NCBI RefSeq assembly: GCF_049818055.1
Contig: NZ_CP187479.1
Location: forward strand, 902,088 to 926,087
Reading direction: 5' to 3'
Length of the DNA stretch: 24,000 bases
From: Desulforudis sp. Tu-874
GTDB lineage: Bacteria > Bacillota > Desulfotomaculia > Desulfotomaculales > JASEER01
Shown: one piece after another, positions 6,180 through 24,000 of the stretch
Position numbering within the stretch: position 1 is the first letter of the stretch
How the letters are laid out: the number at the start of each line of letters is the position of its first letter
Notes under the pieces: model-generated
What the model was told of the DNA's origin: nothing
The model's input: only the letters and a program-made list of their open reading frames with translations
The model's database searches: none
Program-made: the position numbers and the translations under genes

Positions 6180-6234
6180 GGGTGGGTCAATTCTTTTTCG
6201 GCGCTACCGGGTCATTTTAAACCCGGCGCTGACA
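6180..6234. repeat. IS21-family terminal inverted repeat region (istA-proximal end)
   Basis: The reverse complement reads TGTCAGCGCCG..., ...TGACCCGGTAGCGCCG... and ...GAATTGACCCACCCC. These match the blocks at 4037-4091. Confidence 0.75.
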
Positions 6235-6292: not shown

Positions 6293-6342
6293 CATGCAGG
6301 GAACATACAACGCCCCAGCCATAAGCGTTAAATGGGCCTGTA

Positions 6343-6371
6343 AGGCAATCAAAACCCCGGCTACTGGGGTT
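6343..6371 (-). terminator. candidate intrinsic terminator (minus strand)
   Basis: On the minus strand, AACCCC-AGUAGCC-GGGGUU is followed by UUGAUUG. It lies about 350 nt downstream of the last pilin gene. Confidence 0.4.
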
Positions 6372-6453
6372 GGGTCATAAGAGCACTTTAACAGGCCTCT
6401 GAAGCCAAATTAAGAACACCTTGACAACCTCCTTGGGTATTGCTCTAAAATTG

Positions 6454-18855: not shown

Positions 18856-20540
18856 ACGATCACCCTCATTATTTCTTCCAGCGACGTTATACCCTGCTTG
18901 ACCTTTAGCATTCCGTCCCGGCGCAGCGTGACCATGCCCTCGCTGATCGCCTGGTCCTTGATCTCCGAGGCCGAACGCCTCTGCAGGGTTAAGCGCCGGA
19001 TCGGTTCGGTAACGCGCAGCAATTCGTAAACGCCGGTGCGTCCCTTGTATCCCGTCCTGCTGCACCGCAAGCAACCTTTGGGGCGGTATAGGCGGACCGG
19101 TCCGCCGGCGGGGTCTGCCGGAAAATCGGGGATATTCGCCAGTTCCTCCGGGCTTAAGCTGTACTCTTCCTTGCAGTTGGGGCACAGCTTGCGCACCAGC
19201 CGCTGTGCCAGAACACAAACGAGCGATGACGCCGTAAGGAAGGGTTCGATCCCCATGTCCGACAGGCGGGTAATTGCTCCCGCGGCATCGTTGGTGTGTA
19301 GCGTCGACAGCACCAGGTGGCCGGTGAGGGCCGACTCCACGGCGATCCGCGCCGTTTCCTGGTCGCGGATCTCGCCGATCATCACGATATCCGGGTCGCT
19401 CCGCAAGATGGAGCGCAGCCCGTTGGCAAAGGTCAGTCCCGCCTTGGGGTTAACCTGTATCTGGTTCAGCCCGTCGAGCCGGTACTCCACCGGGTCCTCG
19501 ACCGTGATGATGTTCTTCTCCACGGAATTCAGTGCCGCCAGCGCGGCGTACAGCGTCGTGCTCTTGCCGCTTCCGGTGGGTCCCGTCACCAGGATGAACC
19601 CGTAAGGCAGGCGCAAAAACTCTTCGAAGGCCCCGAGGACCTGGCGGGAAAAACCCAGTTTCTCCAAAGTTATCAGCTTGGCCGAGCGGTCGAGGAGACG
19701 CAGGGTCAGCTTCTCGCCGTAGGCCGCCGGCAGCGAAGCGACCCGGACGTCCACGGTCTTGCCTTCGATCCTCAGCGTCATCCGCCCGTCCTGCGGGACG
19801 CGGCGGTCGGCGATGTCCATATTGGCCAGGACCTTGATGCGCGACACCAGCGCCGGGTGAAGCCTGCGCGGCGGCTGCATTATGTCGTGCAGCACGCCGT
19901 CCAGGCGGAAACGTACGCGCATGGACTTCTCCTGCGGGTCGATGTGGATGTCGCTCGCCCCGGCGTTTACGGCCTGGCTGAAAATCAGGTTGGCCAGGCT
20001 GACGGCGGGCTTGTCCGCGGACTCCTCGGGACCGGTGACGATTTCCGGCGCCTGCTGTTCGTCCTCGGGTGCCGTTTCGACATCGGAGTTGGTGCGGCTG
20101 AAGCGGTCGATCGCCGACTCCAGCTCGCTGTCCGGAACAACCACCGGCTGGATTTCGTATCCCGTCAGTATCCGCAGGTCGTCCAGGGCGATCACGTCGG
20201 TGGGGCGCATCATCGCCACCACCAGCCGCCCGTTGTCGAAACCGATGGGCAGGGCGCGGTAACGGCGGGCAACCTCGGGGGAAACCAGGCTCATGGCCGC
20301 CGAATCGATAGTATACGACTCCAAGCTGACAAAAGGCACGCCGGCCCGTTCGGCCATGACCCGCGCGATGTCGTCCTCGCTGCAATACCCCAGCTTGACC
20401 AGCGTACGGCCCAGGAGGCCCTTGTCACCATCCCTGATAACCTGGCTCTTAAGCGCCTCCTCAAGCTGATCCTGCGTAATAATGCCGGCCTCAACCAGCT
20501 TGGTCCCCAGGAAATTACGGCTCGGCTGAAGTTTCGCCAT
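18852..20540 (-). CDS. pilB: type IV pilus assembly ATPase PilB (GspE family) with an MshEN-like N-terminal domain
   Basis: T2SSE N-domain (LVEAGIITQDQLEEALKSQ), Walker A GPTGSGKSTT, and a tetracysteine motif CPNC...CLRC. AAGGTGA RBS. Confidence 0.9.
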   Translation of the reverse strand: MAKLQPSRNFLGTKLVEAGIITQDQLEEALKSQVIRDGDKGLLGRTLVKLGYCSEDDIARVMAERAGVPFVSLESYTIDSAAMSLVSPEVARRYRALPIGFDNGRLVVAMMRPTDVIALDDLRILTGYEIQPVVVPDSELESAIDRFSRTNSDVETAPEDEQQAPEIVTGPEESADKPAVSLANLIFSQAVNAGASDIHIDPQEKSMRVRFRLDGVLHDIMQPPRRLHPALVSRIKVLANMDIADRRVPQDGRMTLRIEGKTVDVRVASLPAAYGEKLTLRLLDRSAKLITLEKLGFSRQVLGAFEEFLRLPYGFILVTGPTGSGKSTTLYAALAALNSVEKNIITVEDPVEYRLDGLNQIQVNPKAGLTFANGLRSILRSDPDIVMIGEIRDQETARIAVESALTGHLVLSTLHTNDAAGAITRLSDMGIEPFLTASSLVCVLAQRLVRKLCPNCKEEYSLSPEELANIPDFPADPAGGPVRLYRPKGCLRCSRTGYKGRTGVYELLRVTEPIRRLTLQRRSASEIKDQAISEGMVTLRRDGMLKVKQGITSLEEIMRVIV

Positions 20541-20770
20541 CAGATCACCTTATCGTTAATATCCCGGACTATAAGTAATTTCGGCAGAAACCTACTGGCG
20601 GTAAATATATGCCAGACGGAAAAGCTATCCTTTCGACAATTAATCTAACAATACATGAAATTTATATATTAATTGCTAAATTTATTATAATTGTGCATGA
20701 AAAGAGCCGCCACCCTTTAGTGAAAATAAACCCCTTTCGTACCTCTCGGCGGATCTTTCTTGACACAAGG
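20541..20770 (-). promoter_or_regulatory. AT-rich upstream/leader region of the pilB operon (promoter not pinpointed)
   Basis: The base composition drops sharply to AT-rich. Several TATAAT-like hexamers are present (TATAAT, TAATAT). An 8-bp inverted repeat CAATTAAT/ATTAATTG sits at 20637-20644 and 20668-20675. Confidence 0.35.
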
Positions 20771-20771
20771 C

Positions 20772-20806
20772 AAACAAAAAAACCGGCCTAAAATCTGAGG
20801 CCGGTT
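20772..20806 (-). terminator. rho-independent terminator ending the peptidase-sortase operon
   Basis: On the minus strand, AACCGGCCU-CAGAUUUU-AGGCCGGUU is followed by a U-tract (UUUUUGUUUG). Confidence 0.7.
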
Positions 20807-20821
20807 GCATAATCATGGCTG

Positions 20822-21475
20822 CTAATTCTCAACCAACTTGGCCCTTACAGCCAGGCGGTTTTCCTTGCCCGATTTGTGACACGTCGTTAACGTCAACGCC
20901 GAATAATCAGTTGGCTGGATAACACTCCAATCATTAGCGGCTATCACCTTGACAAACTCGACCTCGTACACAAAACGTTCGGTACCCTTCTTAATGAGGA
21001 TCCGGTCACCGGCAACCAGCCGGTCTATCTTGCGAAATCACGAACCGTACATGTTCCTATGTGCCGCGACCGCTGTGTTTCCCTCTCCGGGCATCGCCGA
21101 GTGCTCATACCATCCCGGTCCCCTGCTCAGCACGTATGATGTCGTTCCCTTCGCAACGGCTGCTTTCAGCCCTATCTTAGGGATCTCTATTACGAATACC
21201 GCCGGTAAAGGAGGCGGCGGAGGAGCCGGCGCTGGTTTCTTCTCCTCCCCCTTTGGTTCGCCGTCACCAACGACAGGGTTTTCCGTAAGCCCGGTTTCTT
21301 GCCGGACGCTGCCTGCTACACCAGGCACCAGCTCGACTGACTCCATCCGCTCCAGGGCGTGCCGCTGGTAAAGCCAGGCGCGGACATCGGTAAAAAAAGG
21401 GTAAAGCATCAGCAATACCCCCGCTGTCATCAATAAACCGCTGAGAACGATAACCAGCATTCTTTTTCCGGACAT
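20822..21475 (-). pseudogene. sortase (class D/E-like) interrupted by a single in-frame TGA at 21038-21040
   Basis: The N-terminal part (to 21041) has the TM anchor and the His motif (NTAVAAHRNMYGS). The same frame continues after TGA as FRKIDRLVAGDRILIKKGTERFVYEVEFV...SALTLTTCHKSGKENRLAVRAKLVEN. That part carries the TLxTC Cys and the conserved Arg. ATG 21475 has GGAGAG 5 nt upstream. Confidence 0.75.
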
Positions 21476-21552
21476 CTCAACTCTCCAGACTTTCAAGTCC
21501 AAAAGGGGCAATTATTCCTGGCAAGTATTTCTGCACGCAACTCAGTCAAACC

Positions 21553-22092
21553 TTACGCGGGAAGTGGCAGGGTTATGAAATAAGCCGAAACCGTGCCCAG
21601 GAAAATGGCAATGCCGTAAGGAACGGCCAGGCGGTCTTTCGCCTTGACCTCTTCGTTCGGGAGCATCACGTCGTAGCCGATCTTCCCCCTGGTGTAGACA
21701 AACAGTTTTACCCCTACAAGAAAATCGTTCAGGCGTTTGAAGCGCTTGCTGACGATGAGAGCAAGTAAAGCCACTGCTCCGCCCCAGAGAGCGGTCAACA
21801 GCACCGCCGAAAGAATAAATCCGGTCCCCTTGAGCGCGCCGATGGCGCCTAAAAGCTTGACGTCTCCCCCGCCGAGGCCGCCAAGGGCAAACGGAATAAA
21901 AAGAATCAACAGGCCGATCAGCAGCCCCTTGGCACTTAAAAGCAAACCGGGCCAACTCCCGAGGACCCCGTTAATAACCAAACCGGCCGCCATTCCCGAC
22001 AGGGTCAGCCAGTTCGGAATACGGTTTGTGCGCAAATCCCAGGCCAGGCCGATGCCGACCAGCAGGATAACAAGCACGTCGATCATCGTCAA
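21553..22092 (-). CDS. A24-family prepilin peptidase, short CpaA/TadV-like form without an N-methyltransferase domain
   Basis: 179 aa and polytopic. The two catalytic Asp contexts are AWDLRTNRIPN and GGGDVKLLGAIG. There is no cytoplasmic Cys-rich methyltransferase region. GAGGA RBS. Confidence 0.85.
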   Translation of the reverse strand: MTMIDVLVILLVGIGLAWDLRTNRIPNWLTLSGMAAGLVINGVLGSWPGLLLSAKGLLIGLLILFIPFALGGLGGGDVKLLGAIGALKGTGFILSAVLLTALWGGAVALLALIVSKRFKRLNDFLVGVKLFVYTRGKIGYDVMLPNEEVKAKDRLAVPYGIAIFLGTVSAYFITLPLPA

Positions 22093-22139
22093 ATCCTCAG
22101 CTAAAGATCCTTAAACGTATCGGTAACCGGGAGAGTTCG

Positions 22140-22325
22140 TTATTTGAACTCCACAGCTACAATACCCTTCGTGCGGATGGTTACCAGTCGTTTGCACTTG
22201 TTGCACTTGATTTCGATATCGTCGCCGTTGACCACACAAATCAGCTTGTTGCAAAGACACCTTGTTTGCCTGCCGGTCCCCCGGGAGGCCGTTCCGGCAA
22301 GGCTTTGATCGGTCTTATCTTGCAT
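22140..22325 (-). CDS. Com-like zinc-ribbon protein (61 aa)
   Basis: From ATG 22325 (RBS GGAG) the product is MQDKTDQS...TRCLCNKLICVVNGDDIEIKCNKCKRLVTIRT... From memory it resembles phage Mu Com (IRCKNCNKLLFKADSFDHIEIRCPRCKRHI). The first Cys pair has altered spacing. Confidence 0.5.
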   Translation of the reverse strand: MQDKTDQSLAGTASRGTGRQTRCLCNKLICVVNGDDIEIKCNKCKRLVTIRTKGIVAVEFK

Positions 22326-22351
22326 TAATCTCCTGCTCCTCAAAGATAAAA

Positions 22352-22394
22352 CAAAAGGACAAAATATCAAACCGACCTTGACTTAAGGTCGGTT
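22352..22394 (-). terminator. intrinsic terminator forming the expression platform of the leader upstream of the Com-like gene
   Basis: A perfect 10-bp stem, AACCGACCUU-AAGUC-AAGGUCGGUU on the minus strand, followed by UGAUAUUUUGUCCUUUUGUUUU. It lies only about 25 nt before the RBS. Confidence 0.7.
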
Positions 22395-22495
22395 GCCTTG
22401 ACCGTTCCGCGGTAATTCAGGTACCCATTCACCAGCCACGTGCACTGCTCCCCGTTGGGAAAACCAATCCGGCTTCCTGCAAATTCCCGCTTTCA
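22385..22495 (-). promoter_or_regulatory. candidate c-di-GMP-II-like riboswitch aptamer
   Basis: The minus-strand leader contains GUGAAUGGGU (22432-22423) and GCAACCGACC (22396-22387). They occur in the same order as AUGAAUGGGU and GCAACCGACC in the C. acetobutylicum c-di-GMP-II aptamer, which I recall from memory. The second block is also the 5' arm of the terminator. I could not complete a full fold by eye. Confidence 0.45.
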
Positions 22496-22501
22496 CCAAG
22501 A

Positions 22502-22530
22502 ATTTTATCTTTGTTTTAACTGTTTGTCCA
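22502..22530 (-). promoter_or_regulatory. candidate sigma-A promoter for the leader/Com-like operon
   Basis: The minus strand reads TGGACA (22530-22525), a 17-nt spacer, then TAAAAT (22507-22502). Confidence 0.45.
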
Positions 22531-22603
22531 CTACAACTTTCACCAGAAATATCGGCCTTGGGATCTGTATCGAAGTACTTGTCCTCCGGCCTTTTCTTAC
22601 CAC

Positions 22604-23485
22604 CTAATAGACAGCGTAGCTGTCGACCAGGTAGGTTTTAGCAAAGAGCTCGGCGTTGTCATAGTACCGATCCCCCGTTTTGCGCACGAACTTGCCGTCT
22701 TTCACGTATCCTGCGTCCCACGTGGTGTCCATGGGCACCCAGCGGCCGTCGACCTTAATCTCGTTCCAGGCGTGAAACTGGCGTTCCCAGGAATCGCTCC
22801 CGGCCTGCCCGTAAACCACGCGTGCCTCCAGTCCGGCCGCGCGGGCCAACGCCGCGGTCAGGAAGGCGTACCCGCTGCAGACCCCCTGGCGCGCCTCGAG
22901 CGTGCTGCTTGCGGGAGACAGGCTCAAATCCTTGGAAGCAAGACGGCCGGTATCATAGCCGATGTTGGCGGCAACCCAATCGTGGATCGCCCTGGCCTTT
23001 TCCGCGCTCGTTTTGGAACCTGCCGTAACGGCGGCCGCAAGTTTCACGATGTTCTGATCGGCTGAATCAATATAAGCGGAGGGAGCAAGATACCTGTTAT
23101 CCTCCCCGGCCTTGTTGATGACCTGAAACCTGACGGTGCCGTCAAACTTCCGCGGGTTGTCCCCTGCCCAGATCGTGTAAATACCCTGGCCGAAACGAAG
23201 GCTGATCGTCCGTGTGAAGCTTCCCTCTTCGGGATCAACCGGGTAGGTCTCGATCTCGCCGCCGGGACCTCTTACCGCCAGCCATAGCTGCTGTAAATCG
23301 GTCTTACCGGTAACCGTCAGGTCGCCGCTCAACTCCGTCAGGTTCCGGCTCGGGGAAGTGATTTCGATAGCCGCAGATTTAAAGCCGACAGAGTACGCCG
23401 CATCGGCTGCTCCCGGAATGATAACGCAGCAGATGCAAGTCACTAAGACCAAAAGCCAAAAAGCACTCTCGCGGCTGACTCTCAT
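22604..23485 (-). CDS. secreted transglutaminase-like (Cys-His-Asp core) protein
   Basis: Signal peptide MRVSRESAFWLLVLVTCICCVIIPGAADA. Transglutaminase core residues QGVCSGYAFL ... FHAWNEI ... MDTTWD. ATG 23485 is preferred because the 23557 extension would run through the leader terminator. Confidence 0.8.
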   Translation of the reverse strand: MRVSRESAFWLLVLVTCICCVIIPGAADAAYSVGFKSAAIEITSPSRNLTELSGDLTVTGKTDLQQLWLAVRGPGGEIETYPVDPEEGSFTRTISLRFGQGIYTIWAGDNPRKFDGTVRFQVINKAGEDNRYLAPSAYIDSADQNIVKLAAAVTAGSKTSAEKARAIHDWVAANIGYDTGRLASKDLSLSPASSTLEARQGVCSGYAFLTAALARAAGLEARVVYGQAGSDSWERQFHAWNEIKVDGRWVPMDTTWDAGYVKDGKFVRKTGDRYYDNAELFAKTYLVDSYAVY

Positions 23486-23498
23486 CAAGATTCCCCCG

Positions 23499-23538
23499 AA
23501 CAATAAAGAAGCCTGCTCGCCAATTGACGTGCAGGCTT
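23499..23538 (-). terminator. intrinsic terminator (expression platform of the GEMM-I leader)
   Basis: On the minus strand, AAGCCUGC-(14 nt)-GCAGGCUU is followed by CUUUAUUGUU. It ends about 14 nt before the ATG at 23485. Confidence 0.6.
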
Positions 23539-23544
23539 TGAACA

Positions 23545-23640
23545 AGCTTACCGGCAACTGGCTGGCGTAGCAGGTTCCCCTGCCTTAGCCCCTTTAGCTT
23601 TGCGCCGCCACCTTTCGGTGGCTTTGCCCTGAGCGGAGTA
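23545..23640 (-). promoter_or_regulatory. c-di-GMP-I (GEMM-I) riboswitch aptamer
   Basis: The minus strand reads CUCAGGGCAAAGCCACCGAAAGGUGGCGGCGCAAAGCUAAAGGGGCUAAGGCAGGGGAACCUGCUACGCCAGCCAGUUGCC. It has CAGGGCAAA, a 6-bp hairpin capped by GAAA, GCGCAAAGC, and a second hairpin with a CUAAG receptor-like bulge and a GGAA loop. It is collinear with the V. cholerae Vc2 aptamer as I recall it. Confidence 0.7.
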
Positions 23641-23662
23641 TTAAGTTTGCACTTTGCTGTTT

Positions 23663-23690
23663 TTATCGGCGGCTCAACGCGAAAACTTTA
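23663..23690 (-). promoter_or_regulatory. sigma-28/FliA(SigD)-type promoter candidate upstream of the GEMM-I leader
   Basis: The minus strand reads TAAAGTTT (23690-23683), a 12-nt spacer, then GCCGATAA (23670-23663). Both elements match the FliA consensus exactly, and the spacer is one nt longer than the E. coli optimum. Confidence 0.5.
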
Positions 23691-23697
23691 TAGGGAT

Positions 23698-23735
23698 GTA
23701 AAATAATAGGCCCTGCAGGCATCCACCCACAGGGC
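23698..23735 (-). terminator. rho-independent terminator of mdh
   Basis: GCCCUGUGGG...CCUGCAGGGC forms a stem of about 10 bp (with G-U pairs) on the minus strand, followed by CUAUUAUUUU. It lies 30 nt after the mdh stop. Confidence 0.6.
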
Positions 23736-23763
23736 TGTTTTCGTTGAGACTTACGAACCCGTA

Positions 23764-24000
<237 letters not shown>

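Follow-up and report, generated by a model that had tools for sequence, protein, structure and literature searches.

In which cellular state, rich or poor in c-di-GMP (cyclic dimeric GMP), does Desulforudis sp. Tu-874 make a secreted transglutaminase-like enzyme whose gene adjoins its type IV pilus cluster? The question concerns a 24,000-nucleotide (nt) stretch of the genome (contig NZ_CP187479.1, positions 902,088 to 926,087; hereafter the window), in which a first-pass annotation had placed a GEMM-I (c-di-GMP class I) riboswitch with a terminator platform in front of this gene. The whole unit is on the minus strand, and coordinates are given below as window positions, read from high to low. 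The explanation that we consider probable joins, in a module of a single gene, a promoter of the FliA (sigma-28) type, a class I aptamer, an OFF platform resembling that of the Cd1 riboswitch of Clostridioides difficile, and the gene of the secreted enzyme. Promoter, aptamer, terminator, Shine-Dalgarno sequence and ATG are all found on the minus strand within 210 nt.

The aptamer and its ligand

A cmscan search of the window with Rfam 15 returned a single match above any gathering score, namely RF01051 (c-di-GMP-I) at 23638-23550, with 76.9 bits against a gathering score of 35 and an E-value of 9e-14. The match is full length (model positions 1-87 of 87) and was obtained again in a search of the whole genome. 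The element is thus a genuine class I c-di-GMP riboswitch, as had been proposed. The hallmark elements listed in the first-pass annotation, which gave no strand, could all be located on the minus strand: CAGGGCAAA at 23631-23623, GGCGCAAAGC at 23606-23597, the hairpin GCCACC-GAAA-GGUGGC at 23622-23607 with its GAAA (a GNRA tetraloop) at 23616-23613, and UUGCC at 23557-23553. The P2 hairpin occupies 23599-23556; within it CUAAG (23588-23584) faces UACG (23569-23566) as the tetraloop receptor, the 3' half of which carries C in place of the consensus U in the RF01051 alignment. The same alignment contains a two-pair helix of G23627-C23626 with G23603-C23602. The 166-nt leader as a whole folds with a z-score of -2.77 relative to shuffled sequences.

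One structural detail of the earlier description had to be given up. The closing helix that it drew between GGCAA and UUGCC is not part of the bound-state structure, as G23628 and C23554 are unpaired ligand contacts in the family consensus; RNAfold pairs G23629 and G23628 with C23554 and C23553 only in folds that model no ligand. In other respects the riboswitch is an ordinary, well-formed representative of a known class, and the RNA itself adds nothing new on riboswitches. It is also a single unit: RF01051 matched only once across 20400-24000 even at E<=1, so that the leader lacks the two or more complete aptamers of a tandem c-di-GMP-I arrangement, and the space upstream of the aptamer is occupied by the promoter and by the terminator of the neighbouring gene.

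The solved GEMM-I aptamer Vc2 of Vibrio cholerae provides the reference for ligand recognition. In its numbering one guanine of c-di-GMP is read by G20 and the other is paired with C92, with A47 stacked between the two, and relatives that sense cyclic GMP-AMP (cGAMP) have A at position 20 (PMC6140456, PMC5888326). For the present analysis we derived our own mapping of the Vc2 numbering onto the covariance model by means of flanking conserved G-C pairs (model position 11 = G20, 38 = A47 and 83 = C92), and the RF01051 alignment then gives G23628, A23601 and C23554 as the equivalents. The specificity position is G in all seven above-cut-off GEMM-I copies of the genome and in every leader of an orthologous gene, and GGDEF-EAL proteins are encoded in the genome. 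On the strength of these contact positions, their constancy and the presence of such proteins, c-di-GMP rather than cGAMP is the expected ligand, which is also what the first-pass annotation had predicted. A possible objection is that cGAMP riboswitches share the fold and that one Clostridium example is bispecific (PMC6140456), so that the aptamer might respond to 3'3'-cGAMP or to either dinucleotide, in the manner of GEMM-Ib RNAs. We consider this very improbable, since G rather than A stands at the specificity position (G23628) here, in the other copies and in the orthologous leaders, and since wild-type Vc2, which bears G20, discriminates against cGAMP (PMC6140456). The aptamer resembles Vc2 in its GNRA tetraloop/receptor architecture and in its G20/A47/C92-type ligand contacts, and differs from it in what follows, as Vc2 has no terminator mechanism (PMC6366702).

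Expression platform, promoter and direction of switching

The intrinsic terminator of the expression platform (23538-23499) begins 11 nt 3' of the aptamer and consists of a hairpin at 23538-23509, with a folding energy of -18.2 kcal/mol, and a U-rich tail. Its arms, AAGCCUGC (23538-23531) and GCAGGCUU (23516-23509), had already been pointed out just before the start codon and are real, and a terminator-type platform is upheld. The hairpin is longer than was originally drawn, with 8 base pairs, an A/A mismatch, 4 further base pairs (CGUC/GGCG) and an AAUU loop, in the order AAGCCUGC-A-CGUC-AAUU-GGCG-A-GCAGGCUU. The tail, CUUUAUUGUU at 23508-23499, has 7 U in 10 positions, and behind it lie the Shine-Dalgarno sequence GGGGGA (23497-23492), a 6-nt spacer and the ATG (23485-23483). 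The hairpin was missed by a simple terminator scan and was established by folding instead; the scan probably read the 8 outer pairs as the stem, which left a loop above its 8-nt limit.

Aptamer and terminator do not overlap, and in a constrained fold with the aptamer enforced both form together (-51.7 kcal/mol). A predicted antiterminator hairpin at 23562-23519 (-19.7 kcal/mol alone) competes with them. In this hairpin GCCAGUUG (23562-23555), which takes in the P2 base together with the junction G, pairs with CAAUUGGC (23526-23519), CGGUA pairs with UGC-CG, and GCUU (23547-23544) pairs with AAGC (23538-23535). When the nascent transcript was folded up to 23519, the antiterminator was the minimum-energy fold, with -54.3 kcal/mol compared to -39.7 kcal/mol for the aptamer-enforced fold. 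According to these models the antiterminator would consume the whole 5' arm of the terminator as well as nucleotides held by the bound aptamer, and is predicted to exclude both structures.

This arrangement has a well-described precedent. In Cd1 (Cdi-1-3, located before flgB in C. difficile; Sudarsan 2008) aptamer and terminator coexist, an antiterminator competes with them and the switch is OFF, whereas in the ON switch of pilM the aptamer and terminator folds are mutually exclusive (PMC9262584). The constrained and nascent-transcript folds described above have the Cd1-type layout. Because the two layouts match, the riboswitch is likely to be an OFF switch, with a rise in c-di-GMP shutting the gene off. 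The first ~110 nt of the RNA would fold into the class I aptamer. At high c-di-GMP, ligand binding would lock the P2 base together with the 3' strand of the junction, the hairpin at 23538-23509 with its U-rich tail would form, and RNA polymerase would stop before the Shine-Dalgarno sequence. At low c-di-GMP, the 3' strand of the aptamer (GCCAGUUG..CGGUA..GCUU) would pair with the 5' arm and top of the terminator (AAGC..UGC-CG..CAAUUGGC), and the antiterminator would let the polymerase enter the gene. The likeness to Cd1 thus comprises the aptamer family, transcriptional control, the coexistence of aptamer and terminator, a ligand-free antiterminator made from the aptamer 3' strand, the OFF direction and a tie to the flagellar regulon, which here is predicted; the difference is that Cd1 controls a flagellar operon, and the present leader a single secreted-enzyme gene behind a sigma-28-type promoter. 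The flgB leader of the Desulforudis genome has the same platform design, and the functional class I switches of C. difficile, seven in number, are without exception OFF (PMC6366702).

The layout is kept in a relative of the same genus (hereafter the congener), in which the orthologous gene (77% protein identity) also stands behind a single GEMM-I aptamer and has a conserved start codon. Both CAAUUGGC and GCCAGUUG are unchanged in the congener leader. The inner helix of the antiterminator is altered from GCUU:AAGC to GGUU:GGCC, in that one C-G pair has become G-C and two U-A pairs have become G-U, and judged from the two sequences this change is compensatory. The terminator arms are altered from AAGCCUGC/GCAGGCUU to AGGCCUGCG/CGCGGGCUU, and the folding energies are -20.6 kcal/mol for the antiterminator and -17.8 kcal/mol for the terminator. 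The leaders of more distant orthologues (Pelotomaculum propionicicum, several Syntrophomonas, Peptococcaceae and others) have a separate terminator behind each aptamer, and in most cases the AUGCCAGCC(AG) strand of the aptamer finds its complement in the loop or 3' arm of that terminator.

The sequence between the aptamer and the upstream gene was found to contain a near-consensus sigma-28 (FliA/SigD)-type promoter at 23690-23663, at which transcription would start. It is composed of TAAAGTTT (23690-23683), 12 nt and GCCGATAA (23670-23663). The sigma-28 consensus joins a -35 element TAAA(GTTT) and a -10 element GCCGATAA that are ~11-12 nt apart (15-16 nt when counted from TAAA), and the boxes and their spacing here agree with it. 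The predicted transcription start is at ~23656-23652, about 15-20 nt before the aptamer, and a promoter scan found no sigma-70-type site between the upstream terminator and the aptamer. In the congener the promoter reads TAAAGTTC, 12 nt, GCCGATGA, with the same spacing and an unrelated spacer sequence; the other orthologues have sigma-A-like promoters and mostly two riboswitch units. The strict sigma-28 pattern occurs 5 times in the 2.49-Mb genome, compared to ~2 matches expected from base composition (an estimate); one of the matches precedes flgM, and a near-strict copy precedes a methyl-accepting chemotaxis protein gene. A relaxed genome-wide pattern was discarded as a definition of the regulon, as its 77 matches were mostly within genes and too noisy.

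A factor able to use such a promoter is encoded at 1.58 Mb, where the fliA gene scores 246.9 bits with TIGR02479 (cut-off 189.6). The sigma factor encoded in the pilus cluster was rejected as a user of the promoter, as its score is SigB/F/G-like and under the FliA cut-off. The fliA gene forms the distal end of a ~20-kb same-strand flagellar cluster that starts with a GEMM-I riboswitch and flgB. Since the sigma-28-type promoter would drive a leader predicted to be an OFF switch, expression of the enzyme gene would need both FliA and low c-di-GMP. The flagellar cluster forms one operon in Bacillus and C. difficile; if this also holds here, c-di-GMP would lower FliA too, and the gene would be repressed twice, in a coherent feed-forward loop. 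Both the use of the promoter and the loop are what we infer from the arrangement of these sequences.

Several points weigh against an OFF switch behind a FliA promoter. The spacer of E. coli sigma-28 promoters is 1 nt shorter than that found here, and the U-tract of the terminator is interrupted. The energy models omit tertiary contacts, ligand energy and folding kinetics, and the full-length minimum-energy fold adds other long-range pairs, for example between the 5' flank of the aptamer and the Shine-Dalgarno sequence. The covariation in the antiterminator is based on a single relative. In a set of 23 riboswitch units that precede orthologous genes, the energy of the duplex between the aptamer 3' end and the downstream sequence was below that of dinucleotide shuffles (mean z = -1.36; z < -2 in 8 of the 23), but these units are mutually related and some of their terminators, including the present one, were mis-delimited automatically, and the support that they lend to the antiterminator is weak. 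Moreover, Bc2 of B. thuringiensis is a class I ON switch (PMC6366702).

The example of Bc2, the frequent induction of pili and adhesins by c-di-GMP, and the adjoining type IV pilus cluster could all be taken to favour an ON switch, in which c-di-GMP prevents termination and the enzyme is made along with pili in the sessile, high-c-di-GMP state. The structure of the leader makes this unlikely: its terminator is separate from the aptamer and folds together with it, the bound aptamer leaves every strand of the terminator free, and the one structure that competes with the terminator is built from aptamer nucleotides that would be locked on ligand binding. The sigma-28 promoter, in addition, indicates the motile phase, and the pilus neighbourhood is not conserved. 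The imperfect U-tract, directly followed by the Shine-Dalgarno sequence, raises another scenario, in which the aptamer is real and control is exerted mainly on translation or RNA stability, or in which the switch has no regulatory effect. It would be in keeping with the pairing of the aptamer 5' flank (CUCCGCUC) with GGGGGA in the full-length minimum-energy fold, and with the observation that 5 of 16 c-di-GMP riboswitches of C. difficile are non-functional (PMC6366702). This pairing is lost in the congener, however, where the flank reads UGCCGCUA; the aptamer, the antiterminator and the terminator have each been preserved, with compensatory changes, and orthologous leaders in at least four families retain a terminator behind each aptamer. 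We therefore regard this scenario as quite unlikely, and retain transcriptional repression by c-di-GMP as the probable mode of control.

The secreted enzyme and its orthologues

The regulated open reading frame runs from the ATG at 23485 to a stop codon at 22604 and encodes a secreted protein of 293 aa, a putative cysteine protease of the transglutaminase-like (COG1305) type (PF01841, E = 4e-26). By inspection, a signal peptide ends between AADA and AYS; it is followed by an N-terminal beta-sandwich (residues ~40-125) and then by the transglutaminase core, in which the triad Cys203, His238 and Asp253 is invariant in 14 orthologues. The description of the product as a signal-peptide-bearing, transglutaminase-fold protein with a Cys-His-Asp triad was thus borne out. 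The AlphaFold model (predicted local distance difference test score, 80) was matched by Foldseek to 3isr (a putative cysteine protease), TG2/TG3/FXIII, TglA of S. pyogenes, the pseudomurein endoisopeptidase PeiP and, weakly, LapG. The core-domain match, the triad and a fold like that of 3isr and the transglutaminases place the protein in PF01841/COG1305.

Two known systems suggest what such an enzyme might do. LapG of Pseudomonas fluorescens is likewise a transglutaminase-like cysteine protease outside the cytoplasm, the action of which is restricted to low c-di-GMP (PMC3032545). It is a distant structural match (4u65_E; E = 9e-4, TM 0.36), it is controlled post-translationally by the receptor LapD and not by a riboswitch, and the two proteins differ in domain architecture, as do the cell envelopes. 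The leader of zmpI (PPEP-1) in C. difficile carries a class I OFF riboswitch, and the product is a secreted protease that releases adhesins induced via class II riboswitches (PMC6366702). The likeness here is a secreted hydrolase under a class I switch, and the difference is that ZmpI is a zinc metalloprotease whereas the present protein has a Cys-His-Asp transglutaminase fold. The enzyme may either cleave or cross-link; by analogy with the logic of ZmpI or LapG, our guess is that it is a surface or matrix protease of the motile phase.

Its orthologues are mostly preceded by the same class of riboswitch. In a collection of species representatives, GEMM-I immediately precedes 11 of the 13 full-length orthologues, and in 7 of these cases it is a doublet; the remaining two (L012, Thermacetogeniaceae, and L021, Gracilibacter) gave no upstream match even at E<=1. 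The gene was present in 3 of 40 sampled relatives, with GEMM-I in all three cases and doublets in two. Combined, a GEMM-I leader precedes 14 of 16 orthologues (other Clostridia), and 9 of these leaders are tandem. A 2025 survey found COG1305 (yebA, transglutaminase-like putative cysteine proteases) in Bacillota to be significantly enriched as a target of tandem c-di-GMP-I riboswitches (PMC12452182), and tandem c-di-GMP-I doublets, 347 in number, are the most numerous tandem class in a study of doublets and triplets (PMC9481103). The aptamer class and gene family of that survey are those found here, and the orthologues are mostly tandem; this genome and the congener differ in having one unit, with a FliA-type promoter in place of a sigma-A-type promoter and the distal unit. 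Both the RNA class and the link between riboswitch and gene family are therefore already published, and what is added here is the predicted OFF direction, the single-unit FliA leader and the lack of a conserved pilus link.

One tentative explanation, which we offer as a possibility rather than as the expected case, is that in this genus the FliA promoter replaced the distal unit of the two-riboswitch leader that most members of this gene family have. The feed-forward loop would then mimic the sharp response of the tandem, and the enzyme would be a release or dispersal protease of the motile phase, in its logic the Gram-positive equivalent of LapG and ZmpI.

In P. propionicicum the orthologous gene, with its tandem GEMM-I, is convergent with a gene under a class II riboswitch (L009, 5155-6201, minus strand; riboswitch intact, 6318-6401). 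The latter gene encodes a 348-aa protein that consists nearly entirely of (D/N)NG repeats and ends in an LPYTGG sorting signal, and it adjoins genes for a class E sortase and a Cna-B/SdrD-like LPFTGG protein. This arrangement, with the gene next to one for an LPYTGG protein under a class II riboswitch, is reminiscent of the C. difficile pair zmpI/CD2831 (PMC6366702). The resemblance does not extend to the present genome, in which the sortase gene has an in-frame TGA and a screen for LPxTG proteins gave no convincing substrates.

The locus contributes a further well-resolved case to a regulon already known, in which a conserved family of secreted transglutaminase-fold enzymes of syntrophic and sulfate-reducing Clostridia is under class I c-di-GMP riboswitches. 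The tie to the flagellar sigma factor and the class I switch point to expression in the motile, low-c-di-GMP state, and the module may serve as a starting point for finding the substrate of the enzyme.

The Desulforudis genome (2.49 Mb) has seven GEMM-I riboswitches above the cut-off, one of them before flgB. The six copies other than the one described here are at ~319703, 2359176, 2363819, 1600095, 1676451 and 51139 in genome coordinates; judged from their translations, the genes that follow encode, in that order, a secreted acidic TPR/stalk-domain protein, a FapA (DUF342)-like protein, a PAS sensor, FlgB, a small membrane protein and a LuxR-type response regulator. G occupies the specificity position in each of them, and a terminator follows most. 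A truncated further copy (30 bits) is found at 2367840.

Neighbouring genes

Upstream, the unit is bounded by the 3' end of a lactate/malate dehydrogenase gene (24000-23764, minus strand; PF02866 Ldh_1_C, E = 8.6e-13), with its stop codon TAG at 23766-23764. The terminator scan placed an intrinsic terminator of this gene at 23735-23700, consisting of a hairpin at 23735-23710 (11 pairs, 7 of them G-C) and the tail CUAUUAUUUU, and this terminator insulates the riboswitch unit from upstream transcription.

On the downstream side, no hairpin was seen directly after the stop codon at 22604. The first terminator-like structure past it is a minus-strand hairpin, ACCGACCUU/AAGGUCGGU (22393-22371), with a U-rich tail (together 22393-22359), which falls within the leader of the operon that follows (a Com-like gene, a prepilin peptidase gene and a sortase gene), and read-through into that leader is possible. 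The same leader has a promoter-like site at 22530-22502 on the minus strand (TGGACA, 17 nt, TAAAAT), and no Rfam match at E<=1 was obtained in 22350-22530. In P. propionicicum the intact class II riboswitch mentioned above occupies the corresponding sortase neighbourhood. The gene does adjoin the type IV pilus cluster, as the first-pass annotation had stated, but the association is not conserved: the orthologues lie in unrelated neighbourhoods, flanked by unrelated and often convergent genes. An operon link to the pilus genes was likewise rejected, as the orthologues are single-gene units and, in the window, the terminator-like hairpin and the promoter-like site intervene.

Within this next operon, a 61-aa open reading frame at 22325-22140 (minus strand) precedes the gene of a 179-aa A24 prepilin peptidase; it has a Cys-rich, zinc-ribbon-like motif at its C-terminus (CLCNKLIC...CNKCK) and no NCBIfam match. 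The class E sortase gene (21475-20823, minus strand) contains a single in-frame TGA at 21040-21038, between the codons of the catalytic His and of the Cys/Arg (AAHRNMYGS*FRKID). In the P. propionicicum orthologue, which reads GHRTMYGAWFRHLD, a Trp codon stands in the place of this stop. A screen of this genome for C-terminal LPxTG motifs gave spurious matches only. As no convincing LPxTG substrates were found, the sortase gene is probably decaying, and sortase-anchored proteins were set aside as targets of the enzyme here in view of the spurious matches and the in-frame TGA.

The promoter pattern search also brought up a near-identical open reading frame starting MLEGGKVKQIIELHGKGESIRAITRLL, which is present in five copies with shared upstream sequence (genome positions ~908306, 1401311, 1673044, 2220094 and 2331929). 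It looks like an IS21-type transposase, and one of the copies lies within the window, near 6219.

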